In this document: one piece after another, positions 6,001 through 51,938 of the stretch
Layout of the letters: each line of letters begins with the position of its first letter
Position numbering within the stretch: the first letter of the stretch is position 1
DNA from: Candidatus Buchananbacteria bacterium
GTDB taxonomy: Bacteria; Patescibacteriota; Patescibacteriia; Buchananbacterales; UBA6539
NCBI GenBank assembly: GCA_041664165.1
Contig: JBAYLH010000007.1
Span: forward strand, 1 to 59,894
DNA length: 59,894 bases
Reading direction: 5' to 3'
Notes under the pieces: model-generated
The model's database searches: none
Seen by the model: only the letters and a program-made list of their open reading frames with translations
Told to the model about the DNA's origin: nothing
Made by a program: the position numbers and the translations under genes

Positions 6001-9000
6001 CATTCCGCCGGGCAATAGTCTTCCAGTTTGACGACGCCCGGAATTGTGGTTCCGCCTTTTAGCGGGGTATAAGCTTCGCAGCCGACTTCGTCTTGCTGGC
6101 AATACAAAGCGTAATTGGCGCACTGGGGCGAATCAACTTCGTGGCAGCAAAAATTGCCGGCCGCATCGCAGCTGTCAGCGGCGCAGGTGCCAGAGCCGCA
6201 ATCGGAATTAGCGCTGCAGCCTTGGCCGGCTTTGTCACCGCCCTGGCAGAACTTCCGCCAGACCAAAGTGTCGCCAACGCACTGAGCTTTGGTAACGCCG
6301 TCTAAAACCGCGGGGTTTGGCCGATCCAAACTATAGCCTTTGCAATCCAGTGAAACCGGCGCTTTTTTCAGATAAGTTAGGTTAGCCGCGCCATAATCTT
6401 TGTAGCTGGTCGTTACCGGATTTTTAGTTTCAACTTCTTCGATTTGAACGCCGTCAAGATAAAGCGGCTTGGTATTATCGGTACTCAAATTAGCGATTGA
6501 GAGTTTAAAATTATCGCTGCTGATTCGGGTAGTAATCGGATTGGCGACAAATCTCTGCCATTGGTCGGTTAAATGCAAAAATGCCGAATTATTAATTTGA
6601 AGCGGCGAAAAATCAGCCAAGCATTTGCCCTGGTTTCGGCCGCCAGCCGGACAGCCGCTCACCCCGTCGGCGCAGGTGCATAAATCATTAGTTGGCTCGC
6701 AGCTTAAAGCCGGATTCAAACTGCAAAAATGATCCGGATTATGATCGGATAAAATTTCCAAATACCACAGGCCGTCTTCCGGTTTTATTTCTTTGGTCGT
6801 CGAATCGGTTTTGGCCCAAAAAGAAATCCGGTAAGTGGTGTTGGCTTTCAAACCGGTAACCGGCCCGGTATCAAAATCCCGCGGCCGGCCCAAATTATCA
6901 TTATTTATTTTCAAGCATAATTTACCCACCGGGCAATCATTTTGAATTTGTTCAATTGAAGCATTATCGCTCGCTTGATGGCTTTCTCCCCAAAACCAGC
7001 CTTTGGGCAAACTACTAGCATCCGGCCAGTCTTCAAAACTGGCATTGTCAATCAAATTCGTGCCGGCATTGGGCAAAGTCTGGATGAATTCGGAACAACC
7101 AGCTTCCTCGGCCGAACAAGAACCGGCATCGCGGTCTAAATATAATTTGCTTTCGTCGCGGTCAATCGTCCCGACCAAAGTTAAAACTGCCCGATTAGTG
7201 ATGCAGCTTTTGGAAATCCGGAAATTATCAAACCAAACCACACCACTGACTTGTTTAACGCCGTCGCCGACTTCAATTCCGACCTTCACTTTGCCTTTGC
7301 CGTTGCCGGCGGCCGTAACCTTAAAATCAAAACTGATTTGCTGCCAGCCATTTTCTTTATTGACCATTTTTTCCCCTAGCACGCTGCTAGCCAAAGCATC
7401 GGTAACTTTTAAAGTAACATCGCCTTGGTTTAAATAATCATAAACTTGACTTGAAAAAGTATAATCGCCGGCCGGCAATTCCAATTCGGCCGAAGTCGCC
7501 GATTCGTCAATAACCGAACCGTAGTTGAAAAATCTCAAGCTCGCCTGGCCGCCATCGGCATAAATTCTTTCCGCCCCGCCGGCAACCTGGCTGAAATATT
7601 CCCGGTTGCCTTGCCACTTCAAAGAAAGCTGGCCGGTTGCCGGTGCCACGGCCGTTTCAAAACTCGGATTAGGCAACAAATTATCCAGGCTACTGCAGCT
7701 GTCGATAGCGCAAGAAACTCCGTTTTGCTTGATGGTGCAGCCGGTATTGACCACGCATTTGCTGCCGCTGGCCACCCAGAATTTTGAGCCGGAACTGCAT
7801 TTGTCGCTGATAGTCAAATTAACCTGCGAATTGGCGTCAAGACAGAAATTCAAGCCGTTGGGAATATCGCAGCTCGCCGTTACCGGACAGCCGCCTTTCT
7901 GGGTGCAGGGTTTGAGAACTTTTTTACCCTCATTAACGCAAGTCCAAATATTGTCAACCGGATTATAAGTCTGGCAATACCATTTGCAGCCGGCGTTATT
8001 GATGCTGCAGCCGTTGTAATTCAAAGAATTGGCCAAATAGCTGGCCACTGAGCCGCTGCTGCTTTGAAAAGTCTGACAGGTGTTATAATTAGCGCTGCAA
8101 TCTTTTCCGGCTAAATCCCAAACTCTTTTTTCTTCGCTGCAATAGCCGTAATTGCGGCAAGTGCCGTCGTTATTCCGGCTGATACAAGACTGGAAATCCG
8201 CGCAATATTCGGCGCGGCCGATATCGAGACTGGCCGCTTCGTCAGCCGAGCTGCCGGTTTCGGCTTGATAGATAATTTTCGGCCCGAAGCCCTGATTTTT
8301 ACAGATGACTTCCGGCAATTTTAAAACCCAATCCGGATCAATCAAGCCGTGATAAATACTCGCCGCATCGTTAGGGTCATTAAATTTTGAAACTAAATAA
8401 TTAAGGGTAATAATTTTACCGGGATCAAGCAGATGACCGGCTTCGGCCGCTAATTCCCAGCCAACCGGCACAATCCGGTAACTCCTCATAATCACGATAT
8501 TCCGATAAGACAGCTCCAAATTTTTCGCCGTCGGATCAAAATTCCAGGCTCCGAACGGCGCTTCACCGTCAATTAACCCGGCCTTCAGCGCATCCTTTAA
8601 AGTCATTTTTCTTTCGATGATATCGCGAAAAGCCGGCGAAATCACGCATTCTTCCGATCCCGGATTTTTGGGATCAGGACAAAAACTCAATTTGCTTAAT
8701 AAATCATAATCGCTGCTCGGCTTAACGCCGGCTTCCAAAAAATCCAAAAACCGCCGTTCGGCCGCCTTCTTGCCGCCGTATAAAGACACTCCGGTGTCGC
8801 CGGTATATAAATCCTGACTGCCGCCAGGACCCGGCCGAGGCAATAAACCCGCCAAAGCCCGGGCCAAATCTTCAATATAATTTTCATCATTGCCGGCATT
8901 GCTGGCCAAACCCTGCCTAAACCATTTGTCAAAAAGTTTGGACATTAAAGTATTGGCAAAAGTCGCAATCGCATAACCAAAAATATCGCCGAAAGGAACG

Positions 9001-9959
9001 TCCTCGGCCGCCTTGGTGCCTTTGCTGAGCGCCTGGTAAGACGCTTCGGAAACCAAAGACGATGGCGTCAAAATCGAATCAGCAATTTTTTGGCCGACCG
9101 ACTTCCAGCCTTGGCCTTCCTGCCGGCCCAAAATCCCGGCTAATTCATCTTTGGCTTTGGTCTGATAATAAAAATCAAACATCGAAAAAGCAATGCCGAT
9201 GTCATTAGCTGACGGCTCAAAAATACCGGTGAATTTATTCAAAAAATTCGGATCCTTGGCAAAACTTTGCCAATTCTTTACTAGCTGGGTTACGGTGCAT
9301 TTCGGCGGTTTCGGCCGACCCAGTTCGCTGATTCCCAAACTGATTCTGATTTTAATCGGACTGGCCGGTTCGCAAACATTATAATGCAGCCAGCTGCCGC
9401 TCAAACTTTCCAAAAATTTACCGCCGGCGGCATCGGCCAAATCCTTTAAATAAGCGCCCCAGCCCTTGGTATAAAACATCGGCTTTTGGCCTTCATCGCC
9501 GGTCGCCAGCCAAGTGGCCGTATCATAAGCAAAGGTATTAAGCATGTGGCTGACTGCGGTTTTGGCCGCCGCGTAAACGGAGTCTTTCAAGCTTTCCCAG
9601 CCCCAGTCCCTGACTTTAAAGAAATTACCCCACCAATCCTGCAAGCGCTGAATAAAAGTCAGATTTTTATTGGTGGTTTTGGTATCTTTATCAACTGCAT
9701 TGATAGTATCTTTTTGATTACCAGTTACTTCATCAAATTGGGGCTTGGTTACTTCGACTTCAATTGCGCTGGGCGACGCTGCCGCTTTGACCGGCAGCGG
9801 ATATAAAGCCGCTGGCATTACCGAAACTAAAACCATTTGAACCGTAATAATGATGGAAGCGGTTTTTTTAAAGCCGGAAAACCAAGGCCGACTCACCCGA
9901 TTTTTCAGCTGGGTTTGACCGTCTCCTGGCTTGGCAGATTTATTTGAAAAGTAATTCAT
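27..9959 (-). CDS. Giant (3310 aa) secreted/surface protein, Cys-rich, with several CBM4/9-like (galactose-binding fold) domains
   Basis: Single long ORF; N-terminal hydrophobic segment (ASIIITVQMVLVSVMPAALY); recurring domain starts NLLPNPSFET, NLIDNASFED, NLIFNGDLS, YISNGDFE; about ten C-x4/5-(G/S/T)C-xx-(F/Y/L) modules. Confidence 0.8.
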   Translation of the reverse strand: MNYFSNKSAKPGDGQTQLKNRVSRPWFSGFKKTASIIITVQMVLVSVMPAALYPLPVKAAASPSAIEVEVTKPQFDEVTGNQKDTINAVDKDTKTTNKNLTFIQRLQDWWGNFFKVRDWGWESLKDSVYAAAKTAVSHMLNTFAYDTATWLATGDEGQKPMFYTKGWGAYLKDLADAAGGKFLESLSGSWLHYNVCEPASPIKIRISLGISELGRPKPPKCTVTQLVKNWQSFAKDPNFLNKFTGIFEPSANDIGIAFSMFDFYYQTKAKDELAGILGRQEGQGWKSVGQKIADSILTPSSLVSEASYQALSKGTKAAEDVPFGDIFGYAIATFANTLMSKLFDKWFRQGLASNAGNDENYIEDLARALAGLLPRPGPGGSQDLYTGDTGVSLYGGKKAAERRFLDFLEAGVKPSSDYDLLSKLSFCPDPKNPGSEECVISPAFRDIIERKMTLKDALKAGLIDGEAPFGAWNFDPTAKNLELSYRNIVIMRSYRIVPVGWELAAEAGHLLDPGKIITLNYLVSKFNDPNDAASIYHGLIDPDWVLKLPEVICKNQGFGPKIIYQAETGSSADEAASLDIGRAEYCADFQSCISRNNDGTCRNYGYCSEEKRVWDLAGKDCSANYNTCQTFQSSSGSVASYLANSLNYNGCSINNAGCKWYCQTYNPVDNIWTCVNEGKKVLKPCTQKGGCPVTASCDIPNGLNFCLDANSQVNLTISDKCSSGSKFWVASGSKCVVNTGCTIKQNGVSCAIDSCSSLDNLLPNPSFETAVAPATGQLSLKWQGNREYFSQVAGGAERIYADGGQASLRFFNYGSVIDESATSAELELPAGDYTFSSQVYDYLNQGDVTLKVTDALASSVLGEKMVNKENGWQQISFDFKVTAAGNGKGKVKVGIEVGDGVKQVSGVVWFDNFRISKSCITNRAVLTLVGTIDRDESKLYLDRDAGSCSAEEAGCSEFIQTLPNAGTNLIDNASFEDWPDASSLPKGWFWGESHQASDNASIEQIQNDCPVGKLCLKINNDNLGRPRDFDTGPVTGLKANTTYRISFWAKTDSTTKEIKPEDGLWYLEILSDHNPDHFCSLNPALSCEPTNDLCTCADGVSGCPAGGRNQGKCLADFSPLQINNSAFLHLTDQWQRFVANPITTRISSDNFKLSIANLSTDNTKPLYLDGVQIEEVETKNPVTTSYKDYGAANLTYLKKAPVSLDCKGYSLDRPNPAVLDGVTKAQCVGDTLVWRKFCQGGDKAGQGCSANSDCGSGTCAADSCDAAGNFCCHEVDSPQCANYALYCQQDEVGCEAYTPLKGGTTIPGVVKLEDYCPAECVGYDSYKQSNTFFESQASINYFIPATGKQCNAASAGCDEFTNLDEVAKGGEGKEYYKYLRLCEKPNDPGVSCQNFYNWQGSDEAGYQLKVYNLAAAAGSPQAAMDISSWLPYWCADTAAGANGQPACCDGPEDIISNPFCKEFYGIDGNIYYRIYNNTIACSDDCHPFRKSRLNEGDAEATANCTASHGTWDGSSKTCVYQAIPSQGLACSNNVAGCREYSGNASGNVFTAFADNFEPGDTVGWKSGTISSEALSVGGHSIKSQQLAGLETIASAYSKLSSGGNCTESVTACSGNNAKDCFDRTLGKCVSDDTAGGQVCLINVGESSCSDLSQLIKPIKTYLISFWAKGSTTNTIPIKVKLASGSAGSAIIQESTNLGSDWNYYNFGPFTMPDAIPSDLALSLTGENGGTPAFYADNIEIKEVQNYVYEIKNSWKTPNSCDTNPWLSSGPIAAPQFMLGCKQYRDSYSRTHNLKSFDHLCRQEVIGCQALIDTFNSASPYEPEVPFNANDPISAVSVPADKLVYLVNRPQFQCTAANKGCQALGWPQISTADKVVGYQTAYLINDPDKYSSILCQSSEFGCDEFRTGNGTAYFKDPGAKTCEYRVAPGQASSAWFKSGSASTIPDCPLVQPPVGAVHPSNGWTGLCPGEFNSCTQFIDPVSTIAKNLIFNGDLSRDSDNNSVPDGWVKGADNYTQEGLQLEANTLYTLSFTAKKKLDGSLLVIEMKDCPNAVSFDHSIEIASDNKSFKIPPRNYQADSRTIDQISNFPAETTYSVRFTVPKKQVCKLDLKGSDLDNIKDSVKQVNLFKTGIYYTLSNTVDEFSCNGIVDPERGCVLFNDRSQVNFKIGEDDISSLGFDADTSGINVNNGLPVANCSGSCDSNAVLKVTPDRECEAWLACTSYAVTAVTSEGEQKQCLSLGLCNAADESGICTNFVPAAGKDSSGNDLRKSAFSTVEEIKNLSGYATAGLSFNQGVCANGMNNGAACNSKNDCTGSFTTCARTINGYFPYAEMTQYGNAAYISNGDFELAFNQTNQPLAWSEYSNQSSDHTTDGRGWMPYKYTLETNSKQRLEGRYLKLNTSYEAKSSEIDLEKNTDYILTAWINTEELKHDDPTMGTLPGTYLRGQVCYYPEIESSCRKEGDYYNSGSKVCCPKALVLPSGNKWQKLTYDFNSGDKGSKMTLYLSNYASDVATCRDGKDDTKCGISGYSLFDQISLKPVLQVKNVTSNDLNFAANDFVSRSCRVYPEYSSLACEYIDAKNIYHIGQYGYCLTADPNNPQQCVQWLPIDQIKGEMADEVVPYQIQTPLYYCVQKGEMPAFPSTQLMATFNTYTSYSAGSNDNQGRSVQLVPFQINEDYRPLFRYPYVRQIKGHFKFEPDNLPAFAMRGLGMVLNLPPTVDSTPFGPTGNCDPNIDHIQGCDVTFNLQSQGSEIYGFLPATLSFIVPWSAITGLIGALGGDPGISQLIGSALDIVGNLAGGSPGDPSAALLLNINSFKFYNSTQISSASYIDDMQTFQSQALFLNLFTQAGSALLGFAAGGDMENIAAALQISSGVQFSAKIGMATGVTIVTENDPRFTGQFVDPMPDIPNDIYGVAVINLVEGSEQAPGVYGNFKTNDINVNYCKQVVQVVDATGNNKAWSTRVAPGSQYLLPDPNSKKVGASYRNYYLYYDPFNYDQFLTAAQAVNGNIDSPDFAYQSSDYEPFGAIVPPAGLQNPPDWDSRTTNNRQPLFYEPPQPSLGAPYQARMGELHDINYLKRIFLKSYGTGWDFTAATGGLCSDNSANCTVTDKSLCANTNTATCNINHFGDGYKEVSNSNALTWDCLANPPINCGSFPRCGENKRPAGNPDPMGVFSDVCWIEPAIPSTLVNGQKSTVINGVGAVKLDFTVKVDANQLPLKSYSVDWQDGEKTSVSGVSLRERPNLENPFTIYHTYDYWQLKRTSNSPNRGPNLDCPADQNYCLVKPVIEVQDNWNKKNIPSAAASIKVIEKY

Positions 9960-20245: not shown

Positions 20246-21349
20246 TTAATGATTAAGCAAAAAATCAAAACTGCCGGAAATCATGGCATGGGCGTTCCTA
20301 ATTGCCCGGTCGCCAACTTGGCCGGCATATCGGCTGGTTATAATATCATTACCCACGGCAACCCAAGCGGCCTGGCTGCCGCCGATTCCCGCCAAAATAT
20401 CAGTTTGAAGCTGGGTAAAACCATTGAGCCCGGCTTGGCCTAAATTAAAAGCCATATCCGTCAAGACCACCTGCCGGGCTTCGGAAATTCGGCCCAAAGC
20501 ATCCCAATTCGCCTGGCCGCCGACATAATTAATTGCTGTTTGATTGGCAGCGACTAGCCTTGATTGATACAAAGCTTCGGCCTGTTGCGGCGACAGTACC
20601 GTGTTAGCATTTAAAGTGACGGTTTCGGAAGTACCGTTGGCATAAGTCAAAGTAACCTGGTCGCCCGGCGTAAACCGGCACCCGGCGCCAATCGTCCAAT
20701 TGCCGAGGTTATCCTGATAAGCGCCCAAAGAAAAATTGCCAGATCCTTCATTATTTAAAATATAAGAATAAGCATCGCCGGCATAACCGCCGGGTAAATT
20801 ATATTGCCCCGGATTGGGATAATAATCATAATCACCGATACCGGTATAACCGGGCGTAAAAATCGGACCGGTCACGCCGGGCAATTTCGCCACTTGAATC
20901 TGTTTGATTTTAATCCCCTGCAAATTAATTAATGAGGGATTAATGGTCGCTAAAATCATAAACGCAAAAAAGGCCAAAAGCAAGCCGCTCAAAGCGCTGG
21001 CGATAAATTCTTTGGCCGTGCCGACTTTATCCGGACTGCCGGCTGACATCAGCCAAACCAAGCCGCCGGCCATAATCATCACAATAGCCAAAGTCGCCGC
21101 CAAACCGATGCCGTATTTATACAAAGCCGAAATGTAATCGCCGATCCAAGGAATACAATAATTACCGCCGCAAGGCTCAATCGGTCCGAATTTAATCGGC
21201 GTATTGCCCAGCTGAAACTGAATTTTCGGTTCGCTAACCGCCCCGGAAGAATTGGGAATGGTAACGGTGTTTGAATCCGCTTTTAAACCAACGGGCAATA
21301 ATAAAAAAACTAAAAAAAATGAGAAAATAATAATCCTGAAATATTTCAT
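20246..21349 (-). CDS. VirB2/TrbC-like pilin fused to a T4-type (GH24) lysozyme domain
   Basis: Pilin segment YISALYKYGIGLAATLAIVMIMAGGLVWLMSAGSPDKVGTAKEFI; C-terminus ILNNEG...AYQDNLGNWTIGAG and RQVVLTDMAFNLGQAGLNGF...SRYAGQVGDRAIR parallel T4 lysozyme motifs. Confidence 0.85.
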   Translation of the reverse strand: MKYFRIIIFSFFLVFLLLPVGLKADSNTVTIPNSSGAVSEPKIQFQLGNTPIKFGPIEPCGGNYCIPWIGDYISALYKYGIGLAATLAIVMIMAGGLVWLMSAGSPDKVGTAKEFIASALSGLLLAFFAFMILATINPSLINLQGIKIKQIQVAKLPGVTGPIFTPGYTGIGDYDYYPNPGQYNLPGGYAGDAYSYILNNEGSGNFSLGAYQDNLGNWTIGAGCRFTPGDQVTLTYANGTSETVTLNANTVLSPQQAEALYQSRLVAANQTAINYVGGQANWDALGRISEARQVVLTDMAFNLGQAGLNGFTQLQTDILAGIGGSQAAWVAVGNDIITSRYAGQVGDRAIRNAHAMISGSFDFLLNH

Positions 21350-21429
21350 AAAAAGTAATGCTGCTCAATTTTAACTGACCTATGACCCTCGCCCGCTAAA
21401 TACTAAGTATAACTAGGCACGGAGACCCC

Positions 21430-21505
21430 ACTTCGACTCGAACGACGCGAGCCCGCTTCGCCGAATCGATTCCGAGTCGAAGCGAGGCGAGCCCGCTTCG
21501 CCGAA
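21430..21505 (-). repeat. GCGAGCCCGCTTCG repeat cluster between pilin genes
   Basis: Two cores gcgagcccgcttcgccgaa, the reverse complement of the array core at 48440/51470/59760. Confidence 0.75.
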
Positions 21506-21526
21506 ACAAAAGGTGGTTTAAAAAAA

Positions 21527-22396
21527 CTAACGCGGCCACTCCGGTACCCAGGTCCAATTAGCCCCGGCAGCTTCAACGTGAAAATGCCGCCCGGTTCCTC
21601 CCGGTTCATCCACGAAAATCGTACCGTCTCGCATTCTATATGCCCTGCCCCACGTAAGCTGAGTAAAATTTGACCCATCGGGATTTTTGATAGCATTGGT
21701 TGTTACATAGTTATAACAAGGAGCCGTCATACTCGCATCCCAGACATAACCCGAACCATGGCGGTTCTCACCGGCTCGATAGCCATCAGTCGAAGTGCAG
21801 CCTTGGTCTTGATAGAGTTGCCGCCTTTGATTTGCTTCGTCTGTTAGCTGAGTAAAATTGCCGCGAGCCGTGCCGCCGCCGGCTCCTGTCCCGGCTCCGA
21901 TTGCCGCAAATTCCGCTGAACCGCCCGAACCAAACCCGGGCGATATCACGCCCGGCAACTTCGCGACGGCGATTTGCTTTATCCTAATGGCTTCCAAGTT
22001 GGTCAGTTTCGGATTTATCGCCGTTAGCACCATAATGGCAAATAAGGCCAAAAACAATCCGCTCAAGGCGCTAGTGATAAACTCTTTGGCTTTACCGACT
22101 TTATCCGGACTGCCGGCCGACATCAGCCAAACTAACCCGCCGACCATAATCATCACAATGGCTAAAGCGGCGGCGAAACCGACGCCGTAGTTATATAAAG
22201 CGGAAATATACTGGCCAAGCCAAGGAATTGAACACTCGGAACCGGCGGTGCAACTGACCGTTTGAAAATCAATTTTAGTTGAGCCGATTATAACCTGCAT
22301 TTTAGGCGGCGTGGTCTCACCAGCGGCCAAAACTAAAACCGGCAGAAAAATTGTCAAAATTAAACTGGCTAATAAAATTTTATTTCTCTTTTTCAT
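21527..22396 (-). CDS. VirB2/TrbC-like pilin fused to a putative M15-like Zn peptidase domain
   Basis: Same pilin segment; C-terminal GYR...RHGSGYVWD and HFHVE match the H-x(3-6)-D / HxH pattern of M15/LAS peptidases. Confidence 0.75.
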   Translation of the reverse strand: MKKRNKILLASLILTIFLPVLVLAAGETTPPKMQVIIGSTKIDFQTVSCTAGSECSIPWLGQYISALYNYGVGFAAALAIVMIMVGGLVWLMSAGSPDKVGKAKEFITSALSGLFLALFAIMVLTAINPKLTNLEAIRIKQIAVAKLPGVISPGFGSGGSAEFAAIGAGTGAGGGTARGNFTQLTDEANQRRQLYQDQGCTSTDGYRAGENRHGSGYVWDASMTAPCYNYVTTNAIKNPDGSNFTQLTWGRAYRMRDGTIFVDEPGGTGRHFHVEAAGANWTWVPEWPR

Positions 22397-22508
22397 TCTC
22401 TAAAAAATTAATATTTCTGTAAAAAATCGAATAGGATAAATCACTTTTAACCAAGCTGCCAATCAATGACAACACTTACCATTTCCGCCCGCCCTAGCCG
22501 ATTAAATA

Positions 22509-23387
22509 TCACATTGAAATATTCAACCTATTTGATTGCATCATATTTTCTATATATGACAACCCGGATGACATATCCATATTATTCAAATTCTGAGCCA
22601 TATCCCTAAATAGTTGGGGGATAGGAAAAATCAAATTACCCGGTGAATACCAGTGATTAGCAAGATTTGCTTGATTTGAAGCATCAACCCAGGGTATGCC
22701 ATCATTTATCGTTCGCGCATCAATTCCCCCATAATAGTATTGCCACCGGCCATCGTAAAATCTTAAATTTAACACACTTGTTGCCGACATTCCGACACGA
22801 TTTATTTCCGGCGGCGTTTCGACATGGATAAATCTACCATTATCAAAATCAGTCGCAGAAATACGCGCATTTAGGCCATTAGTGATTCCTTCAAGCCGCG
22901 GATTTACCCCGGTAACGGTAATTCCTTTTAAATTAACCAAATTGGGATTAATCGTGGTTAAAATCATCACCGCAAAAAGCGCCAAAAGCAAACCGCTCAA
23001 AGCGCTGGCGATAAATTCTTTCGCTTTGCCGACTTTGTCCGGACTGCCGGCTGATAATAGCCAGACTAAGCCGCCGACCATAATCATCACAATAGCTAAG
23101 GCGGCGGCCAAACCGATGCCGTAGTTATATAAAACGGAAATATACTGGCCGATCCAGCTAATTTGCAAGCACTGAACGCCGTTGGCCGTGCCGTTGGGAC
23201 AATAATTCGAACCACTTTGCCAGCCGGCGTTTTCGCCCGTCCAGCCGCTAAAGCCGCCGAGATGAATTTGAACTGTCGGCACAATCGGATCAGCCGCCAA
23301 GGTCAGGTTGGCGCCAAAAATAAAAATGAAAAAAAATAGCAAAAATTTTCCCGGGAGGCTCAAATTAAAATTTATTTTTTTAGCCAC
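22509..23387 (-). CDS. VirB2/TrbC-like pilin with unrecognised C-terminal domain
   Basis: Same pilin segment (YISVLYNYGIGLAAALAIVMIMVGGLVWLLSAGSPDKVGKAKEF); AT-richer unrelated C-terminus; GTG start 3 nt after the dsbA stop. Confidence 0.75.
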   Translation of the reverse strand: MAKKINFNLSLPGKFLLFFFIFIFGANLTLAADPIVPTVQIHLGGFSGWTGENAGWQSGSNYCPNGTANGVQCLQISWIGQYISVLYNYGIGLAAALAIVMIMVGGLVWLLSAGSPDKVGKAKEFIASALSGLLLALFAVMILTTINPNLVNLKGITVTGVNPRLEGITNGLNARISATDFDNGRFIHVETPPEINRVGMSATSVLNLRFYDGRWQYYYGGIDARTINDGIPWVDASNQANLANHWYSPGNLIFPIPQLFRDMAQNLNNMDMSSGLSYIENMMQSNRLNISM

Positions 23388-26755: not shown

Positions 26756-26840
26756 GGGCGAGTGGCGAAACTTGGTAGACGCGCTAGCTTCAGGAGCTAG
26801 TTCCCGCAAGGGATTGGAGGTTCAAATCCTCTCTCGCCCA
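26756..26840 (+). tRNA. tRNA-Leu (anticodon CAG), CCA not encoded
   Basis: Acceptor GGGCGAG/CTCGCCC, anticodon arm CTAGC-TTCAGGA-GCTAG, long variable arm CCC-GCAA-GGG, T-arm GGAGG-TTCAAAT-CCTCT. Confidence 0.96.
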
Positions 26841-26876
26841 TCTCCCGTATCCTGCAATATAAAATGGTGCAGGGAC

Positions 26877-26987
26877 GGGGAAACCCATGAGAGTTTCCCG
26901 ACGCACGTATTATTAAAAATAATTAATGAAGTCGGGATCCCGATTGCCAACTTTAGTAGCACATCGGGACGAGTCTCCCCTTCGGCA
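26877..26987 (+). pseudogene. tRNA-Leu-like 3' fragment interrupted in the T-loop by a palindromic element
   Basis: GGGGAAACCCATGAGAGTT [26896-26969 insert] CGAGTCTCCCCTTCGGCA. Confidence 0.6.
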
Positions 26988-27015
26988 TAGACATAAGTGG
27001 CACTTTACGTCGGGA

Positions 27016-27247
27016 TTCTCGCAAGAGATTGGAGGTTTCCCGACGCACGTATTACTTATATTAATTTAAGAAGTCGGCCTGCCCGCCATTTGTCTCCTTA
27101 AATTTAAGGTTTAAAGTTTTTGGGTTATAACGCTCCAATCATTCTAATTTATAAATTGAGCAGGCATTGGCAGGCGGGGATCCCGATTTTCTAAACCATA
27201 ATTTTAAAAAATCAGGACAAATCCTCTCTTGCCCACCTTCGGCACCA
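27016..27247 (+). pseudogene. Second tRNA-Leu 3' fragment interrupted in the T-loop, plus a third 3' end with CCA
   Basis: TTCTCGCAAGAGATTGGAGGTT [27038-27217 insert] CAAATCCTCTCTTGCCCA, overlapping CCCACCTTCGGCACCA. Confidence 0.7.
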
Positions 27248-27296: not shown

Positions 27297-29063
27297 ATGA
27301 AAAAAACTAACAAACCAAAAGGCCGGCAATGGCACCGGCCGCTCTCCAGACAACAGTCAAAGGGAGCCAACGAATCTTATAAAATCGGCAACAAAGCCGA
27401 GGCGAAGCTTAAAATTTATGCTTTAGGGGGCCTCGAAGAAGTCGGCCGGAATATGACGGTTTTCGAATTCGGCTCCGATATTATTATCGTTGATATGGGT
27501 TCGCAATTTCCCGAAGAAGACATGCATGGCATTGATTACATTATTCCCAACGTGACTTCGCTGAAAGGCCGGGAAAAAAATATCCGCGGCGTGATTATCA
27601 CCCACGGCCATTTAGACCATATCGGCGCCGCGCCTCACCTTCTGCCGAAACTAGGCAATCCTTTGGTTATCGGGGCGCCAATGACCATTGCCTTATTGAA
27701 AAAACAGATTGAAAACCATCAGGAAAAATTTACCCCTAAGGTTTTAGAAATAAAATCGCTGAAAACCCAGGTTCAACTGGGCAAATTTAAAATCAATTTT
27801 TTCCAGGTTACCCACAGCATTAAAGATTCAATCGGCGTAATCATTCAAACGCCGGTGGCCAATGTCATCCATCCCGGCGATTGGCGGTATGATTTGGATC
27901 CGGTGGCCGGTCCGAGAACCGATTTGAGATATTTGGCTCGCTGGAATACCAAATTAGCGCCTTCGATTTTAATGATGGAAAGTTTAGGTTCAACCGAATT
28001 GGGCCATCAAGGTTCGGAAAAAGAGGTTTATAAAAATGTTGAAAATATCATCAAAAAAGCCGAAGGCCGGGTCATTTTCGGCACCTTTGCCAGCATGTTG
28101 GAACGGATCGGCCAAGTCATTGAAATTGCCCAAAATCACGGCAAAAAAGTGGCGGTTGACGGTTTCAGCATGAAAACCAACGTCGAAATCGGCAAAAAAT
28201 TCGGCTTTATTAAAGCCAGCAAAAACACTTTAATCGATATTGATAAAATTGACAGCTACCCTAAAAATAAAATTGTGGTAATTTGTACCGGTTCGCAGGG
28301 CGAAGGCCGAGCCGTGCTGAGCCGGATCGCCAACCGCGAGCACCGCTACATTAAAATTGAGCCCAAAGACACCGTGGTCTTTTCTTCTTCAGTGATTCCC
28401 GGCAATGAAAGAACAATTCAATATCTCAAAGACAGCCTGTATCGGCAGGGCGCGAATGTTATCCACAAAGAAATTATGGATGTTCACGCCGGCGGCCATG
28501 GCAAAATTGAAGACATCAAACTTTTACTCAGCCAAGTCAGGCCGGCCTGGCTAATTCCGATTTATGCCAACCATTACCTTTTGCGGGAAGCGGCTAAAGT
28601 CGCCGAAAGCATCGGTTTCAACAAACAAAAAATCTTGGTCGCTGACAACGGCCAAATCATTGAATTCGATAAAGCCGGCGGCCGGCTGACCGATAACCGC
28701 GTCCCGACCGATTACGTTTTCGTTGATGGCTTAGGCGTCGGCGATGTTTCCCACGTCGTTTTACGCGACCGCCAAGTCATGGCCGACGATGGGATGATTG
28801 TCGTCATTGCGACGATCAGTAAAGCAACCGGCACTTTGGTCCAAAATCCCGATTTGATTTCCCGCGGTTTTATCTATATGAAGGAAAACAAAAAGCTGAT
28901 TGAAGAAACCAGGATGAAAGCCAAAAAAATCTTCAAGGAAAATTTAACCGGCGGCATTGATGAAAATTATTACAAAGATAAAATCAGAAATGAAATCGGC
29001 CAATTCCTGTACCAAAAAACTCAAAGGCGACCGATGGTACTTCCAGTAATTATCCAGGTTTAG
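27297..29063 (+). CDS. rnj: Ribonuclease J
   Basis: LGGLEEVGRNM, THGHLDHIGA, VTHSI, GSQGE and HAGGH motifs. Confidence 0.97.
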   Translation: MKKTNKPKGRQWHRPLSRQQSKGANESYKIGNKAEAKLKIYALGGLEEVGRNMTVFEFGSDIIIVDMGSQFPEEDMHGIDYIIPNVTSLKGREKNIRGVIITHGHLDHIGAAPHLLPKLGNPLVIGAPMTIALLKKQIENHQEKFTPKVLEIKSLKTQVQLGKFKINFFQVTHSIKDSIGVIIQTPVANVIHPGDWRYDLDPVAGPRTDLRYLARWNTKLAPSILMMESLGSTELGHQGSEKEVYKNVENIIKKAEGRVIFGTFASMLERIGQVIEIAQNHGKKVAVDGFSMKTNVEIGKKFGFIKASKNTLIDIDKIDSYPKNKIVVICTGSQGEGRAVLSRIANREHRYIKIEPKDTVVFSSSVIPGNERTIQYLKDSLYRQGANVIHKEIMDVHAGGHGKIEDIKLLLSQVRPAWLIPIYANHYLLREAAKVAESIGFNKQKILVADNGQIIEFDKAGGRLTDNRVPTDYVFVDGLGVGDVSHVVLRDRQVMADDGMIVVIATISKATGTLVQNPDLISRGFIYMKENKKLIEETRMKAKKIFKENLTGGIDENYYKDKIRNEIGQFLYQKTQRRPMVLPVIIQV

Positions 29064-29188
29064 GCCAACTTGCCCCGCACCAATTCAAAAGCTAAACTTT
29101 GACTATATTATAAAGCAAGCCGCAGGCGAATCCGCGCCCAAGTATCAATGATCTCTAATTTTATTTTTTTCGCGGAATTCAGTGCGGG

Positions 29189-29218
29189 GTGGTTTTACCC
29201 GTTATTATTCAAGTCTAA
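29189..29218 (+). repeat. Partial duplicate of the rnj 3' end
   Basis: Reads VVLPVIIQV-stop versus rnj MVLPVIIQV-stop. Confidence 0.75.
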
Positions 29219-29265
29219 ACTGTGGAGATGAACAGTGGATGGCTTTTTAATAAATTTATTACTTT

Positions 29266-30513
29266 ATGAAAAAACTTTTACTCTGTTTGCCGCTTTTATT
29301 AACCTTGCTTGTTTCCGGCTGTCAAGCACCACCGATTGCCCAACCTAATGTTAACGACAACGGTGCTAATTTGGATTCAATTGGTAAAACCATTAAAGGT
29401 AATGATGAATTCGGCTTGAATTTATATACTAAATACAAGACCAAAGACGGCAATATTTTCTTTTCACCCTATAGCATCTCTTCGGCTTTGGCGATGACTT
29501 ACGAAGGCGCCAAAGGCCAAACCGCCGCTGAAATGCAGAAAGTTTTCGGCTTTTTAGCCGACCCGACCGATCGCCGGTCTTCTTTTGCTAAAATCTACAA
29601 CGATTTGAACGCAAAAAATGAAGATTACCAGCTTAACACAGCCAACGCTTTATGGGTGCAAAAAGATTTTCCATTTTTAGCTGATTATCTTAACCTGGTT
29701 GAAAAATATTACGGTGGCAAAGCAACCAATTTGGATTTTATAAATCAAACCGAACAGTCCCGACAGACAATTAACCAATGGGTGGAAAAAAAGACTAATA
29801 ACAAGATTCAAAACCTCCTGCCCCAAGGCAGTGTTTCTGGTGACACCAGGCTGATTTTAACCAATGCCGTTTATTTCAAAGGAACCTGGCTTTTCCCGTT
29901 TGAAAAAAGCAGCACTCAAAAAAAAGATTTTCAGCTAACACCAACCAATACCGTTACTGTCGATATGATGCAACTATACGGCAAAAAATTTAAGTATAGC
30001 GAGACTAATAAACTCCAAGCCTTAGAAATACCATACAAGGGTGATAAAATTTCCATGCTAATTCTATTGCCAAAAAATAACGATTTGGCGTATCTGGAAA
30101 ATAACCTCAACTTGAAAAATTTAAATGAGTGGAAAACCAGCATGAACTCAGAAAAAGTCACAGTTTTTTTACCTAAATATAAATTTGATACAAAATATGA
30201 TATGGCCCAAGATTTAACTCAATTAGGCATGCCAACCGCTTTCAATTGTTCACTCGCTGATTTCTCCGGCATGACCGGCAAAACTGACTTATGTATTGAC
30301 CAGGTCATTCATAAAGCCTTTATTGAAGTTGATGAACAGGGAACTGAAGCCGCGGCGGCTACGGCGGTTATCATGAAGACTAGCATGGCTGGTCCGACTC
30401 AACCAGAAAAAATCTACTTTTTTAATGCTGATCATCCATTTATCTTCTTAATTCAAGACAAACAAAGCGGCAATATCTTATTTTTAGGCCGAGTCAGCGA
30501 CCCGACCAAATAA
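29266..30513 (+). CDS. Serpin-family protease inhibitor, probable lipoprotein
   Basis: NIFFSPYSISSALAMTYEGAKGQT, hinge EQGTEAAAATAV, FNADHPFIFLI; lipobox LLVSGC. Confidence 0.95.
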   Translation: MKKLLLCLPLLLTLLVSGCQAPPIAQPNVNDNGANLDSIGKTIKGNDEFGLNLYTKYKTKDGNIFFSPYSISSALAMTYEGAKGQTAAEMQKVFGFLADPTDRRSSFAKIYNDLNAKNEDYQLNTANALWVQKDFPFLADYLNLVEKYYGGKATNLDFINQTEQSRQTINQWVEKKTNNKIQNLLPQGSVSGDTRLILTNAVYFKGTWLFPFEKSSTQKKDFQLTPTNTVTVDMMQLYGKKFKYSETNKLQALEIPYKGDKISMLILLPKNNDLAYLENNLNLKNLNEWKTSMNSEKVTVFLPKYKFDTKYDMAQDLTQLGMPTAFNCSLADFSGMTGKTDLCIDQVIHKAFIEVDEQGTEAAAATAVIMKTSMAGPTQPEKIYFFNADHPFIFLIQDKQSGNILFLGRVSDPTK

Positions 30514-30528
30514 TTGCCTTCCCGCAGC

Positions 30529-30606
30529 CGCAATGAAATCGGCCAATTCCTATACCAAAAAACCAAAAGAAGGCCACTGGTTTTACCAGCCATTATTCAA
30601 GTCTAA
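30529..30606 (+). repeat. Diverged duplicate of the last 25 codons of rnj
   Basis: Reads RNEIGQFLYQKTKRRPLVLPAIIQV-stop versus rnj RNEIGQFLYQKTQRRPMVLPVIIQV-stop. Confidence 0.9.
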
Positions 30607-30632
30607 ACTAATTTTTGGTACAATAAATCTAT

Positions 30633-30968
30633 ATGGATATTATTATTAAAAGCATAGCGTCTGGCATAGTAACGGCAATAATTTTGCTAATTGCAAAATT
30701 TGCCGGCCCTAAAATGGGGGGGGCAATTGGCGGAATACCAATCGTTTTTGCCGTGTCGTATGTCATGCTGACCTTAAAGGACAAAAGTTTAGGCCATGAA
30801 TTTCTAATTGGCGGAATTTATGGCGCTATCGCTGCAATATTTTTCAGTCTTATTCTTATGTGGTTTAATATTCAGTTTGCTAAAAGCCATTGGTTAAATT
30901 TTGCCATAGCCTATATTCTGACATTTTTACTTGCCCTTGCTCTAGTATATTTTACCTCAAAGAAATAA
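30633..30968 (+). CDS. Small 4-TM membrane protein (DUF3147-like)
   Basis: IIKSIASGIVTAII, GGAIGGIP motifs; family recalled from motif only. Confidence 0.65.
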   Translation: MDIIIKSIASGIVTAIILLIAKFAGPKMGGAIGGIPIVFAVSYVMLTLKDKSLGHEFLIGGIYGAIAAIFFSLILMWFNIQFAKSHWLNFAIAYILTFLLALALVYFTSKK

Positions 30969-31059
30969 TGGAAATAAAATAGTCTTCTAGCAAACACAGA
31001 GCGCAGAGTTGACAAAGATTTTAAACCTGCTAAACTGGATTTATTCGTTAACAATTCTA

Positions 31060-31498
31060 AAACCTATGAAACGTGTCCCCCCCCACTTTCTATTCTACTT
31101 AATCCAGAAATCAAATCGAGATAATATATAAAACTTTAAATCAAGAGAATAGAAAGTGAAAAAGAAAGTGGGGGAGGGATTGGGCACGCTTCGTTACGTC
31201 GCTCGCGAACGATGTAACAAGGTGATTACTGCGTTAGTGGCAATCCGGCAGCCTCCGTAACCAAGGGCTAGAGCGTGTTGCCCCGAATCAAGTTCGGGGT
31301 CAAAGCGCTTGAAAGTTTACCCCCACACCTTGGATGAATAATCCAGGGCGTGAAGCCAACTCAAATTAAAATAAATTTAATGGCAACAACTTAACCCAAA
31401 AGGTTAAGGTGTAGGGGTGAATAAGGGTGGTACCGCGGAATAACCTTTCGTCCCTTAAGTATATTTTAGATATACCTAAGAGCTGAGAGGTTTTTTTG
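31060..31498 (+). promoter_or_regulatory. T-box leader/antiterminator upstream of trpS; 5' boundary uncertain
   Basis: AATAAGGGTGGTACCGCGG...TTTCGTCCCTT at 31420-31456, followed by hairpin and T-run to 31498. Confidence 0.8.
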
Positions 31499-31543
31499 TT
31501 GGCGGCAACTAGAGGCTCTTTAGACGAGAAGGAGGATTAGACC

Positions 31544-31729
31544 ATGGCTTGGGGTCAAACTAAAGTCTTGGAAGGGGCGGGAATTTGCCCCTTTTGTCAG
31601 CAACCGAAAGCTGGCACCAAAACCGGCCCGGTCGGCGGCGGCGGCTGGGGCAGCCAATGCAGAGAAGGGATGATAGCTTGCTGCATTAATCCCAATTGCT
31701 CCGAAGGCCGGAAGAATCCGGCCAAATAA
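31544..31729 (+). CDS. Small Cys-rich hypothetical protein (putative Zn-binding)
   Basis: Strong SD AAGGAGG 7 nt before the ATG; CPFC...C...CCINPNC. Confidence 0.55.
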   Translation: MAWGQTKVLEGAGICPFCQQPKAGTKTGPVGGGGWGSQCREGMIACCINPNCSEGRKNPAK

Positions 31730-31849
31730 AAGCAATAAGCAGCTTGGTTTCACCATTGAGTCGCTGGCGGCAGGAATTATCCTCCGCCAGCGGCCATTTT
31801 TTCAAAATTAACAGTTTACAATAAACGATTTAAGTAATAAAATAAGTAT

Positions 31850-32821
31850 ATGACTAAAGAAATTATCGTGTCGGGAATTAGACCGACGGGAAAACTTCAT
31901 ATCGGCAACTATTTGGGGGCTTTAAAAAACTTCGTTAAACTGCAAAAAGATTACGAGTGCTACTTTTTTATTGCTGATCTGCATTCTTTGAATGCGCCAT
32001 TTGATCCTAAAATCAAACCTCAGCAAATTTTAAATTTGGTCAAAGATTTTCTAGCCGCCGGATTGGACCCAAAAAAATGCACCCTCTTTATTCAGTCTCA
32101 TATCGCCGAACATAGCGAACTGGCGGTTATCCTTTCCAATTTTATTCCGGCATCTTTCCTTTTCCGAATGACTCAATATAAAGAAAAGTCTGCCGATCAA
32201 TCCCAAGAGAATGCAAATGCCGGCCTGCTTTATTATCCGATTTTAATGGCTTCGGACATATTGATGTACAAAGCCAGCCGCGTACCGGTCGGTATTGACC
32301 AAACCCAGCACGTTGAACTGGCTCGAGATGCCGCCGGTTTTTTCAACAACAAATTCGGCGGAACTTTCCCGGAGCCAAAGCCGCTTTATACGGAGACACC
32401 AAAAGTTATGAGCTTATTGGCGCCTGATAAAAAAATGGCAAAAAGCTTAGGCGATAGTCATTGTCTTTATATCGACGACGAACCGGAAGTAATCAAAACC
32501 AAGCTGGCCAAGGCAGTAACCGACACCGGCGACGGCAAAAGTTTAGGCGCGAAAAATCTTTTGGATTTAGTCAAAATCTTCAGCACCAAAAAAACCTACG
32601 ATAAACTCTCAGCCGACAGCAATGCCGGCAAATTAAAATACTCGGAATTAAAAAGCCAGCTGGCTTTAGACATTGCCGACTATTTTGCCGATTTCCGCAA
32701 AAAGAAAAAACAAATTACTGAAAAAGAAGTAAAAAAAGTTTTAGCGGCCGGCGCCAAAAAAGCCCAAAAGGTCGCCGCTAAAACCATGGCTGAAATCCGG
32801 AAAAAAATTGGTTTAAGATAA
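31850..32821 (+). CDS. trpS: Tryptophan--tRNA ligase
   Basis: SGIRPTGKLHIGNYLGA, VPVGIDQTQHVELAR and KKMAKS motifs. Confidence 0.97.
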   Translation: MTKEIIVSGIRPTGKLHIGNYLGALKNFVKLQKDYECYFFIADLHSLNAPFDPKIKPQQILNLVKDFLAAGLDPKKCTLFIQSHIAEHSELAVILSNFIPASFLFRMTQYKEKSADQSQENANAGLLYYPILMASDILMYKASRVPVGIDQTQHVELARDAAGFFNNKFGGTFPEPKPLYTETPKVMSLLAPDKKMAKSLGDSHCLYIDDEPEVIKTKLAKAVTDTGDGKSLGAKNLLDLVKIFSTKKTYDKLSADSNAGKLKYSELKSQLALDIADYFADFRKKKKQITEKEVKKVLAAGAKKAQKVAAKTMAEIRKKIGLR

Positions 32822-51283: not shown

Positions 51284-51938
51284 AATTTGTCATTCCACAC
51301 TGGTCTATTGATGACAGGCTTGAGGCGGAATCCAGGAGTCCTTTTTTGCCGCCCATGGCGACATAAGCCCAGGGCTACGCCTCATAACAAATCTCGGATT
51401 CCCAAGCCGCGCCGTCTGGCGGAGACCAACACTTGTGTTGGCCGCTAAAACTACAAAACAAGTTTTGTTCGCCTCGATTCGGCGAAGCGGGCTCGCCTCG
51501 ATTCCGATCGCTTCCGAGTCGAAGCGGGCTCGCCTCGATTCGGCGAAGCGGGCTCGCCTCGATTCCGATCGCTTCCGAGTCGGAGCGGGCTCGCCTCGCT
51601 TGACGCGAGTCGGAGCGGGCTCGCCTCGCTCGACGCGAGTCGGAGCGGGCTCTCCACTAGTCAAGTTAAGCTGCCGGACTAAAGTCCGGCCTGCGTGGAG
51701 AACCCAGCTTATCCCGCTCCAAGTTTGCGAACCGGCTTTAATTAATATTATCGTCTAGTTGGCGCAAAGATCGCCTTACCTGAAATAAACTCAATTATCG
51801 GCTGGTAAGATTAATAATCATGTTTAATTAGGAACTTGGTGCGGGATTAGTATTTGTAACTGCTCGGCTTCACCTCGCGGACAAATATTAAAAAAAAGAC
51901 CAGCTAAGCTCGTCTTATATTGACAAGTCTAACTGGTC
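51284..51938. repeat. Composite repeat element copy 2
   Basis: First ~220 bp nearly identical to 59573-59790; internal array of six (A/G)GCGGGCTC cores; right end shared with copy 1. Confidence 0.9.

Follow-up and report, generated by a model that had tools for sequence, protein, structure and literature searches.

The rnj locus described here lies in a stretch of 59,894 nucleotides from a Candidatus Buchananbacteria bacterium (contig JBAYLH010000007.1), hereafter the window, and its features are on the forward (+) strand. Downstream of an intact tRNA-Leu(CAG) gene (26756-26840), which is followed by three displaced 3' fragments in a region extending to 27247, rnj itself is intact (27297..29063; Pfam RNase_J_b_CASP, RNase_J_C and Lactamase_B). 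The working copy A of its tail, i.e. the final 11 codons and the stop (RPMVLPVIIQV*), occupies positions 29028-29063. A first displaced tail (tail 1) overlaps it: the head (29062..29068; AGG CCA A, i.e. Arg-Pro-M...) has its AG in common with the working TAG stop, and the body (29190..29218) reads TG GTT TTA CCC GTT ATT ATT CAA GTC TAA. Between head and body, a palindromic repeat of 121 nt (29069..29189; CTTG-CCCCGCACCAATTC ... GAATTCAGTGCGGGG) splits tail 1 at CCA A^TG G; it contains the inverted repeat CCCCGCAC...GTGCGGGG (29073-29189). Then come a low-GC inserted segment with one gene, a serpin (29219..30528; CDS 29266-30513; Pfam Serpin, E 2.5e-124), a second displaced tail (tail 2; 30529..30606), which is the end of an rnj allele with 25 codons and a stop (RNEIGQFLYQKTKRRPLVLPAIIQV*), and a low-GC segment encoding a 111-aa membrane protein (30607..31008; CDS 30633-30968). 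The latter segment ends at the trpS leader promoter, where the conserved right-hand neighbour begins (31009..32821). This neighbour comprises the promoter TTGACA-16-TAAACT (31009-31036), a T-box-like leader (31286-31458), a small Cys-rich ORF (31544-31729) and trpS (31850-32821). The order rnj, palindrome, tail, serpin, tail and DUF3147-like gene had been proposed in an initial annotation made from the letters of the window, and it is confirmed position by position; the 10 codons then given for tail 1 (29189-29218, VVLPVIIQV*) have to be corrected to 12, split by the hairpin.

An assembly artefact as the origin of the extra tails is ruled out, since two independent assemblies agree across the whole stretch. 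The contigs of two runs (2018, 64x; 2022, 12x), both groundwater assemblies, carry the same arrangement and are colinear over positions 28151-31900. As regards an excised circle or an empty site, the assembler contigs of both runs report no joints between 28711 and 31900. The synteny SBP5 - tRNA-Leu - rnj - trpS is kept in most of the 80 species loci, and the trpS promoter and leader can be aligned by eye with those of loci L001, L004 and L086.

The gene content of the inserts is restricted to the serpin and the DUF3147-like gene, whose GC contents (0.389 and 0.366, respectively) are lower than in any of the 26 further genes of the window for which GC was measured (mean 0.463, minimum 0.397). 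The serpin is of a secreted or lipoprotein type. Its segment of about 1.3 kb, flanked by tails 1 and 2 as direct repeats of the target, with rnj intact, is absent from about 180 related loci. No shared cassette was found for the captured genes postulated in the initial annotation; the nearest serpins, from DPANN archaea, Omnitrophota and other Patescibacteria, are 58-60% identical and lie in unrelated contexts (archaeal and other) with no rnj tail. The 111-aa membrane protein matches DUF3147/GlpM only weakly (E 0.004, below the Pfam cut-off) and its gene has its own extended -10-like sequence, TGGTACAAT. This gene is absent behind rnj in all relatives, and the closest homologues of its product adjoin displaced tRNA fragments. 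As previously noted, the window holds no recognizable integrase: none of the 10 unclear ORFs tested matched an integrase or transposase family, the remaining ORFs being judged housekeeping by sequence only.

The displaced tails diverged as coding sequences

In tail 2 (26 codons including the stop), 22 of the 25 residues are identical to RNase J (tblastn E 3e-10). With the hairpin read out, tail 1 extends over 12 codons (RPMVLPVIIQV*) and forms a tandem copy with a period of 34 nt, in the +1 frame; its Arg codon overlaps the working TAG stop. A repeat search of the window recovers both tails (families D1 for tail 2 and D2 for tail 1). By itself, tail 1 is too short for significance, and its identification is backed by its identity with tail 2 and by its recurrence at the same place in relatives. 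The last 32 nt of tail 2, including the ACT after the stop, match tail 1 at 29 positions right of the TGG point, a similarity that ranks within the highest 1% of 378 tail pairs compared between species. Left of the TGG point, tail 2 is about 50% diverged from the working gene. Tails 1 and 2 have identical blocks of 8 and 18 nt in common; between the working tail and tail 1, such identity is limited to TGGT and ATTAT. The working and displaced copies lack a shared identical core of at least 7 nt, and may have diverged after the event.

Between working and displaced tails (window, L002, L111, L123 and L061), pS ranges from 0.75 to 1.08 and pN from 0 to 0.09. All or nearly all differences are synonymous (P<=4e-4 against random expectation), and the displaced tails of the window, L002 and L180 show no amino-acid change at all despite saturated synonymous sites. 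Moreover, the 6 differences between tail 1 and the displaced tail of L002 are all synonymous (P=5e-5). As the differences are almost only synonymous, the tails have a history as coding sequence and are not products of decay at their present position, which bears out the initial proposal that they derive from other rnj alleles. A duplication of the rnj end within the locus would account for the tandem arrangement of tail 1 with its 34-nt period; its subsequent neutral decay is ruled out by differences confined to synonymous positions at saturation, and we consider an origin by such a duplication or by an assembly artefact extremely improbable.

The initial annotation also had each tail heading an AT-rich gene. 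Tail 1 heads no captured gene; it is displaced by a non-coding unit of 155 nt composed of a replacement tail (34 nt) and the palindromic repeat (121 nt). A role of the tails as promoters of the downstream genes was not retained: TTTACC-16-TAAACT scores 8/12 and is not called, the scan calling the trpS leader promoter only.

The palindromic repeat is a dispersed element

The 121-nt hairpin is a dispersed element and is not specific to rnj, because a second copy lies at 51.7 kb in the window (51713..51845, reverse strand; nhmmer E 4e-7), in an intergenic position 3' of a purH-like gene. Besides these two copies, the family (about 115-140 nt) has more than 20 members in related loci, detected by nhmmer. 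Elsewhere, relatives have copies within displaced tRNA-Leu fragments, either in the D-loop (after CCAR) or in the T-loop. The consensus fold of the family alignment A1 has 21 pairs, 10 of them with compensatory changes; the terminal stem consists of 14 pairs, with complementary ends of about 14-15 nt. Structure is evident only in this alignment, as folding of the single sequence gives nothing exceptional (z -1.1 and -2.3), and no Rfam match was obtained over 29064-29192 at E<=1.

Being short, non-coding, multi-copy and complementary at its termini, the 121-nt hairpin resembles MITE, REP and single-strand IS200/IS605-type derivatives, which it also recalls by its several copies per genome and its position after a short motif (CCAR). 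It differs from them in that no target-site duplication (the flanks CCAA|...|TGG, CCAG|...|TTTC and TTCG|...|AGTC show no duplicated motif), partner transposase or autonomous copy was found, the transposase search covering the 10 unclear ORFs of the window. In addition, the repeat never occurs in the rnj setting without a replacement gene end beside it, a feature that has not been described for any of these element types. We found no literature on such palindromic repeats in Patescibacteria. The hairpin copies of five carriers diverge in a star-like manner, all pairs being 71-76% identical; recent transfer of the hairpin between the sampled genomes was not seen.

Displaced rnj tails recur in relatives

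The distance separating rnj from trpS varies among relatives, from about 10 nt to over 4 kb, and the intervening genes differ. A variable region behind rnj and further carriers of rnj tails were both anticipated from the window sequence, and at least 11 relatives were found to have the hairpin and a displaced rnj tail, intact or decayed. In those relatives that were inspected, the cargo showed no integrase or transposase. Carriers and non-carriers are interspersed among close relatives on the rnj tree, which gives a patchy distribution. The collections searched held no closer strains without inserts, the best relative being 85% identical in RNase J. L001 and L084, considered as a near-isogenic pair, were discarded (87% nucleotide identity, no downstream homology).

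The TAG-R-CCN-A junction is found again in L002, L084, L086, L088, L090, L172, L173 and L180. Removing the hairpin gives the reading RPMVLPVIIQV* for the displaced copy of the window and for those of L002 and L180; decay has affected this copy in L084, L090 and L172. CCNA^TGG is also the position of the hairpin in the distant lineage L111 and, putatively (manual boundaries), in L044 and L123. The left limit of the displaced copy is at 12 codons in the window and about nine close relatives, at about 12-16 in L111, at 14 in L061 and at 26 in tail 2.

These data could be explained by a single ancient tandem duplication and hairpin insertion, followed by vertical inheritance in a Buchananbacteria-like group. 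The tail would then have been kept intact in some lineages because it is used, either as a mini-ORF of 9-10 codons (GTG/ATG-VLPVIIQV*) or as the working end after loss of the unit by recombination between copies. The junction common to all close carriers, the star-like divergence of the hairpins and the tails of the window, L002 and L180, which lack amino-acid changes, are all compatible with such a history. The last G of the hairpin moreover converts the split ATG to GTG in every carrier, but no ribosome-binding spacing is present 5' of this GTG. Tails that are decaying or deleted (L084, L090, L172, L004 and L155) argue against their use, the rnj tree would require at least seven precise losses, and tail 2 and the similar events in distant lineages would be left unexplained. 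We regard this scenario as improbable.

Two proposed nested insertions at the same site

From the anatomy of the locus, the coding-type divergence of the tails, their patchy recurrence in relatives and the dispersed hairpin, we propose, with a probability of about 45%, that two nested, target-restoring insertions at the same site, CCN A^TG GTN (Pro-Met|Val), displaced pieces of their target, which persist as the extra rnj ends. Each incoming DNA would have brought its own rnj end, so that RNase J would have remained full-length and the end then in use would have been pushed downstream. A segment of about 1.39 kb with one serpin gene probably entered first, and the end native at that time would have become tail 2. 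The 155-nt unit would then have entered, displacing tail 1, with the stop of the replacement tail formed at the junction. In this order, the newer insertions would lie nearest rnj. The events may have been site-specific and catalysed in trans by an enzyme encoded outside the window, candidates being a recombinase or the activity that mobilizes the palindromic repeats. The 155-nt unit would move in one piece that starts at the CCNA^TGG of the tail copy it carries and finishes where the hairpin ends.

The shared CCNA^TGG junction, the hairpin copies at other sites, the TGG point in the serpin event and the low-GC cargo are consistent with two such insertions, as is the stacking rule known for integrated islands, given below. 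This explanation is weakened by the lack of an integrase or transposase among the 10 window ORFs tested and in the cargo of the relatives inspected, by that of an identical core of at least 7 nt, by scans of viral contigs for a phage or plasmid attachment site mimicking the rnj end, which yielded no look-alike, and by the star-like similarity of the hairpins (71-76%), which gives no sign of recent transfer. The idea of serial capture behind rnj, put forward in the initial annotation, holds for the coding-type tails, the variable region and the recurring scars, and fails for the event that displaced tail 1, which brought no gene. In this idea, the rnj end may be a recombinase attachment site or just an anchor for homology.

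The same topology could result from host recombination, which we consider possible, though unlikely. Naturally transformable bacteria are known to undergo homology-facilitated illegitimate recombination. The term appears in PMC6382021 and PMC8116780. Pairing through the conserved body or end of rnj would involve either DNA taken up from a related lineage or a circle that was excised between two tails. A single homologous (Campbell-type) crossover, or such a joining at a microhomology, would then duplicate the rnj end to either side of the foreign DNA; the palindromic repeat would have settled later in the useless copy. The lack of an integrase among the ORFs tested fits this mechanism, as do the deep conservation of rnj and its position at the border of a variable region. 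With left limits that vary between displaced copies, homology-driven events fit equally well as several elements with different attachment regions. Further points in its favour are scars of the same kind, found at trpS, where the cargo measures 1.8-2.1 kb, and at an AlaRS-like gene of archaea, together with a tail-copy scan of about 2 Mb, in which 17 copies were downstream and 3 upstream. However, the tail homologies of just 30-80 nt, at 66-85% identity, are a poor substrate for RecA, and the illegitimate joins known to date usually delete recipient DNA and do not duplicate it. Host recombination also has to contend with a hairpin junction at exactly the same dinucleotide in lineages down to 55% RNase J identity, and with an identical T|AGR junction in about nine genomes, which requires one origin or a precise process.

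Within the reading of two nested insertions, the 155-nt unit might be a self-insuring miniature mobile element, which enters the final codons of an essential gene, carries synonymous replacements for these same codons, their stop arising at its own junction, beside a palindrome recognized by an enzyme in trans, and which leaves precisely. A precise exit would occasionally return the native end to use, and would explain the lack of amino-acid changes at saturated synonymous divergence. We hold this proposal to be rather unlikely. By the same logic, the unit would carry a replacement tRNA 5' end in the copies found in the tRNA-Leu D-loop. Should the short hairpin unit prove to move in one piece, it would exemplify, in compact form, an element able to repair the essential gene in which it lies, and would point to a putative additional recombination or transposition activity in this group.

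Comparison with known integration systems

We read serial insertion at rnj as a variant of known target-restoring integration; no description of rnj as an integration target was found in the literature, and nothing for Patescibacteria. Genomic islands inserted in tRNA and tmRNA genes by tyrosine integrases are gathered in the Islander collection (PMC4383910), and the tycheposons of Prochlorococcus are islands in the same genes (10.1101/2020.12.28.424599). As these sources describe, the island copy restores the split target and the displaced fragment marks the island end; upon repeated integration, newcomers push older arrivals outward, off the target, leaving scattered partial targets that include integrase-less remnants. 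The rnj locus is similar in these respects, but its target is a protein-coding 3' end, so that copies differ at synonymous sites, it has no integrase and no visible identical core, and its cargo consists of one gene or none (155 nt).

Among streptococcal ICEs, cis-mobilizable elements are integrase-less remnants flanked by att sites that accumulate in tandem. Islands and integrative elements in the 3' or 5' ends of protein-coding genes include SGI1 in trmE (PMC2297512, PMC8409611) and the dusA islands (PMC4482086). In them, a conserved housekeeping gene offers its end as attachment site, a role that the rnj end may share, and a substitute end comes with the incoming DNA; directly repeated gene ends, tandem arrays and remnants without recombination genes are common to both types of elements and to the rnj locus. 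Unlike the rnj inserts, these elements are kilobases long and encode an integrase or clearly derive from elements that do.

Integron cassettes are likewise single-gene units bounded by repeats and stacked at a fixed point behind a conserved sequence. However, the rnj locus has no IntI, the repeat that bounds its units is a host-gene end, and direct reading of the hairpin (ends CTTGCCCCGC.../...GCGGGG) and tails revealed no attC consensus (RYYYAAC...GTTRRRY), so that an attC reading of the hairpin was rejected. Tn7-like elements are likewise addressed by an essential gene, glmS, through its conserved coding 3' end, but Tn7 inserts past the stop without duplicating or replacing the gene end, and no Tns genes are present here.

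Displaced ends at other genes

Patescibacteria have tiny genomes with few recognizable mobile elements, yet their gene content varies among close relatives. Displaced gene ends with cargo and without integrase were also found at trpS and tRNA genes in other Patescibacteria, so this kind of scar, first noticed at rnj, extends beyond it. Displaced ends of conserved genes (rnj, trpS, tRNA-Leu and tRNA-Lys), with one-gene cargo and no integrase, constitute a searchable footprint of accessory-gene acquisition. At the rnj locus, this cargo consists of a secreted protease inhibitor and a small membrane protein, and the Pro-Met|Val site is a reusable address across lineages with only about 55% RNase J identity.

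In the window, the three displaced tRNA-Leu fragments (repeat families D5, D9 and D16) are on the forward strand. The third is uninterrupted (27236-27247), and the same fragment pattern occurs in L001, L002, L003, L005, L008 and L019. In the first (26877-26895 and 26970-26987) and the second (27012-27037 and 27218-27235), the T-loop is interrupted by an insert, of 74 and 180 nt, respectively, and both inserts begin with TCCCGACGCACG.

Organization of the rnj locus

The window derives from a Patescibacteria genome of Buchananbacteria-like affiliation; searches of genome and metagenome collections gave RNase J identities of 74-85% for the best matches. A gene for a family-5 solute-binding protein (SBP5) precedes tRNA-Leu(CAG) (26756-26840), rnj (27297-29063), a serpin gene (29266-30513) and a gene for a 111-aa membrane protein with a weak DUF3147 match (30633-30968). 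Then come a sigma-70-type promoter (31009-31036), a T-box-like leader, a small Cys-rich ORF and trpS (31850-32821). Contigs of two independent groundwater runs (different studies and years; 64x and 12x) span 28151-31900 unbroken, so the arrangement is not an assembly artefact. Over this interval, the second run's contig shows 13 single-base differences from the window. Eight of them lie in a 91-nt stretch inside rnj (28637-28727), in a cluster that looks like a short recombination tract, and only 5 in the next 3.2 kb.

Displaced ends of rnj

Insertions have repeatedly used the end of rnj as their address, and the tails found downstream of it are coding ends that were displaced. Both extra rnj ends of the initial annotation were confirmed where it had placed them, tail 1 (VVLPVIIQV*) at 29189-29218 and tail 2 (RNEIGQFLYQKTKRRPLVLPAIIQV*; 22 of 25 residues identical) at 30529-30606. 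Tail 2 is significant by itself (tblastn, E 3e-10). Tail 1 is short, but its alignment with the end of tail 2 gives 29 identical bases out of 32, counting the ACT after the stop; only 4 of 378 between-species tail pairs reach 29 (mean 23.7). Of the five strain differences outside the cluster, one falls in tail 1 (position 29200, CCC to CCG, synonymous-type).

The working end differs from tail 1 by 8 bases and no residue (pS 1.08, pN 0.06), and from tail 2 by 18 bases and 3 residues (pS 0.75, pN 0.09). Against either displaced end, synonymous sites are thus saturated and amino-acid sites nearly unchanged, which rules out local decay of the copies. When equal numbers of substitutions were placed at random (20,000 trials), no trial of either comparison changed so few residues. 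The proposal that the copies evolved as coding sequence of other rnj alleles therefore holds.

Tails 1 and 2 are near-identical rightward from a TGG in the Pro-Met/Val codons (CCN A^TG G), and to its left tail 2 departs from the working gene over 5 codons in a row. The similarity break of tail 2 therefore falls at the TGG of the hairpin unit described below. Farther left, tail 2 includes a stretch in which several species conserve even the synonymous sites; identity there is therefore uninformative.

A hairpin unit behind rnj

What had been read as a "palindrome" separating rnj from tail 1 is an element of 121 nt (29069-29189) with a terminal stem of 14 pairs, an inner GCC/GGC hairpin and a CGCG stem. 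With this hairpin removed, the sequence after the working stop reads AGG CCA ATG GTT TTA CCC GTT ATT ATT CAA GTC TAA (RPMVLPVIIQV*). Tail 1 therefore repeats the last 11 codons of rnj as a tandem 34-nt copy, shifted by one base and split by the hairpin at CCA A^TG G; the working TAG stop gets its AG from the Arg codon of tail 1. Serial capture of genes behind rnj, as originally proposed, is partly supported: it stands for the recurrent use of the rnj end and for the nature of the tails, but not for tail 1 as the head of a captured gene: it was displaced by a short non-coding unit of 155 nt (34-nt replacement tail plus hairpin).

A profile search found this hairpin family (~115-140 nt) in many related loci. 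The consensus fold of 11 aligned copies has 21 pairs, 10 of them kept by changes on both sides, and no Rfam family matched the element. The window carries a second copy behind a purH-like gene (51713-51845, minus strand). Immediately next to this copy, at 51469-51652, are tandem arrays (periods 24, 30 and 61 nt; 97-100% matches), and the ORFs overlapping them on both strands are probably spurious. In relatives, the hairpin also lies within displaced tRNA-Leu pieces: loci L001, L003, L005, L008, L019 and probably L006 carry it in the D-loop, reversed and following CCAR when read on the element's own strand, and L008 has it in the T-loop as well.

Distribution in related genomes

The order SBP5, tRNA-Leu, rnj, trpS is kept in most of 80 species-level loci. 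Variable cargo behind rnj had been anticipated and was found: the spacing between rnj and trpS ranges from ~10 nt to >4 kb, with a varying gene content including a small MFS-like protein, chorismate mutase, TrpB-like enzymes, DapB, a HicAB pair, a methylase with a partner gene, and others.

Several relatives carry a hairpin and a displaced rnj tail at a common junction (TAG-R-CCN-A^TG). The tail is intact in L002 and L180, retained as PVIIQV* in L173 next to a nearly deleted hairpin, altered in L084 (RPVVLSIIIQV*) and L090 (RPVMPPVII*V*), internally deleted in L172, and reduced to remnants in L086 and L088/L089. In L004 the hairpin is a related one and the tail has decayed badly. Distant lineages (RNase J ~55% identical) show the same arrangement with their own tail spelling, as in L111 (SRPMVLPVVIEV*) and L123 (KTMILPVIIEV*); L044/L133 have two hairpins and L155 a truncated tail. 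In L061, a 14-codon tail lies behind a different hairpin.

On the RNase J tree, carriers alternate with non-carriers (the window vs. L003 and L081; L084 vs. L001; L086 vs. L087). The hairpins of five carriers are 71-76% alike in a star-like pattern, with rnj third codon positions 51-57% alike, and no recent hairpin transfer among the sampled genomes was seen in these five. A third reading, after the two mechanisms weighed below, posits one ancient event, after which selection retained the displaced tail. The common junction among carriers agrees with it, as do tails intact at saturated synonymous divergence (6 of 6 differences between the window and L002 are synonymous), but it is weakened by the clearly decaying tails of other carriers.

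Cargo genes

The serpin and membrane protein genes were found behind rnj in none of ~180 loci. Their GC contents (0.389 and 0.366, respectively) are below those of all 26 other window genes measured (mean 0.463, sd 0.044, minimum 0.397). The segment between the tails, with a period of 1388 nt, holds the serpin as its single gene. The nearest serpins are only 58-60% identical, from DPANN archaea, Omnitrophota and other Patescibacteria; the two contexts inspected were archaeal and unrelated to rnj, and no shared serpin cassette could be defined from these. In one of the nearest-serpin contigs (L163, DPANN-type; 3024-4930), the AlaRS-like gene next to the serpin is followed ~100 nt downstream by a stop-terminated repeat of its own last 10 residues (8/10 identical).

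The membrane protein encoded behind tail 2 is one of a 110-aa family that is common in the Candidate Phyla Radiation (CPR). Close homologues lie directly behind a displaced tRNA 3' fragment (L176/L177; L176 150-260) and within a tRNA-Lys locus that also contains incomplete tRNA copies (L175, 2130-3180), as expected for a gene travelling with attachment-site scars. The closest homologues with context each have a similar extended -10 box. The tRNA-Lys locus has two partial 5' tRNA copies, one with a GC-rich hairpin in its D-loop, a GIY-YIG-type ORF, and tRNA 3' end fragments after the cargo gene.

Displaced ends of other genes

Over ~2 Mb of fetched loci, we looked, within 3 kb downstream of each gene, for a stop-terminated copy of that gene's last 10 residues. 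This gave 17 matches, against 3 in the upstream control; besides rnj, they included trpS in L073 and in L125/L126, and the archaeal AlaRS-like gene. In L073 (10899-13090) and L125 (9887-11720), displaced trpS 3' tails of ~18-20 codons lie behind 1.8-2.1 kb of cargo, namely a RelE-like toxin with unknown genes (2.1 kb) in L073 and, in L125, a radical-SAM gene together with an opposite-strand HIT-like gene. Inspection of these cargo ORFs, without a family scan, noticed no integrase.

In the region 26756-27247, three displaced tRNA-Leu 3' fragments from different alleles lie downstream of tRNA-Leu(CAG). Two are split exactly in the T-loop by inserts of a second repeat family beginning with TCCCGACGCACG (26896-26969, 74 nt; 27038-27217, 180 nt); the same family occupies T-loops of such fragments in L001 and L002. 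Relatives likewise have displaced 5' and 3' fragments from different alleles. In five of them, 5' pieces lie upstream of the working gene, each with the palindromic hairpin repeat in its D-loop (L003 4430-4836, as two tandem units; L008 6130-6560; L001 7370-7890; L005 85-330; L019 7600-7750). An inverted 11-12-nt repeat (CCCCTCACCAA / TTGGYGAGGGG) brackets the working tRNA in L001 and L008; L003 has only the upstream arm.

Possible mechanism

In integrated islands, incoming DNA carries a copy of the distal part of its target, so that the gene is regenerated and its former end displaced, and later arrivals at the working site shift earlier ones outward (PMC4383910; 10.1101/2020.12.28.424599). 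The rnj arrangement has the same topology. A first event would have brought in the serpin segment and left tail 2 behind; the 155-nt unit would then have entered, leaving tail 1. This unit would span from the CCNA^TGG of its own tail copy to the hairpin end, and its entry and exit would leave RNase J unchanged.

The rnj end would be either an attachment site or a homology anchor. We favour a site-specific process acting in trans because the hairpin junction is the same dinucleotide in far-apart lineages, the similarity break of tail 2 falls at the same point, and the hairpin family is demonstrably dispersed, so that some enzyme must move it. Tail state also tracks hairpin state: intact tails accompany well-paired hairpins (window, L002, L180) and decayed tails damaged ones (L084, L090, L172). 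Four points count against it: no recombinase matched among 10 unclear window ORFs, no identical core common to working and displaced ends is visible, the left limits of displaced copies vary, and similar scars occur at trpS. Homology-anchored recombination of taken-up DNA fits these points equally well. Events of this kind have precedents at tRNA genes and at some few protein genes; what this locus adds is the target (the rnj Pro-Met/Val site in Patescibacteria), the target-restoring 155-nt unit, and a setting where those 10 ORFs yielded no integrase.

Other features of the window

In the trpS leader (31009-31729), a strong promoter is accompanied by a long inverted repeat (31077-31177) and by a T-box match that is weak (31.8 bits, far below the Rfam cut-off of 93). 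The leader also includes a Cys-rich ORF of 61 aa, which at least 7 relatives keep between leader and trpS. A 3310-aa ORF occupies the left end (27-9959, minus strand), and three tandem paralogues, putative secreted or membrane proteins, are encoded at 20246-23387.
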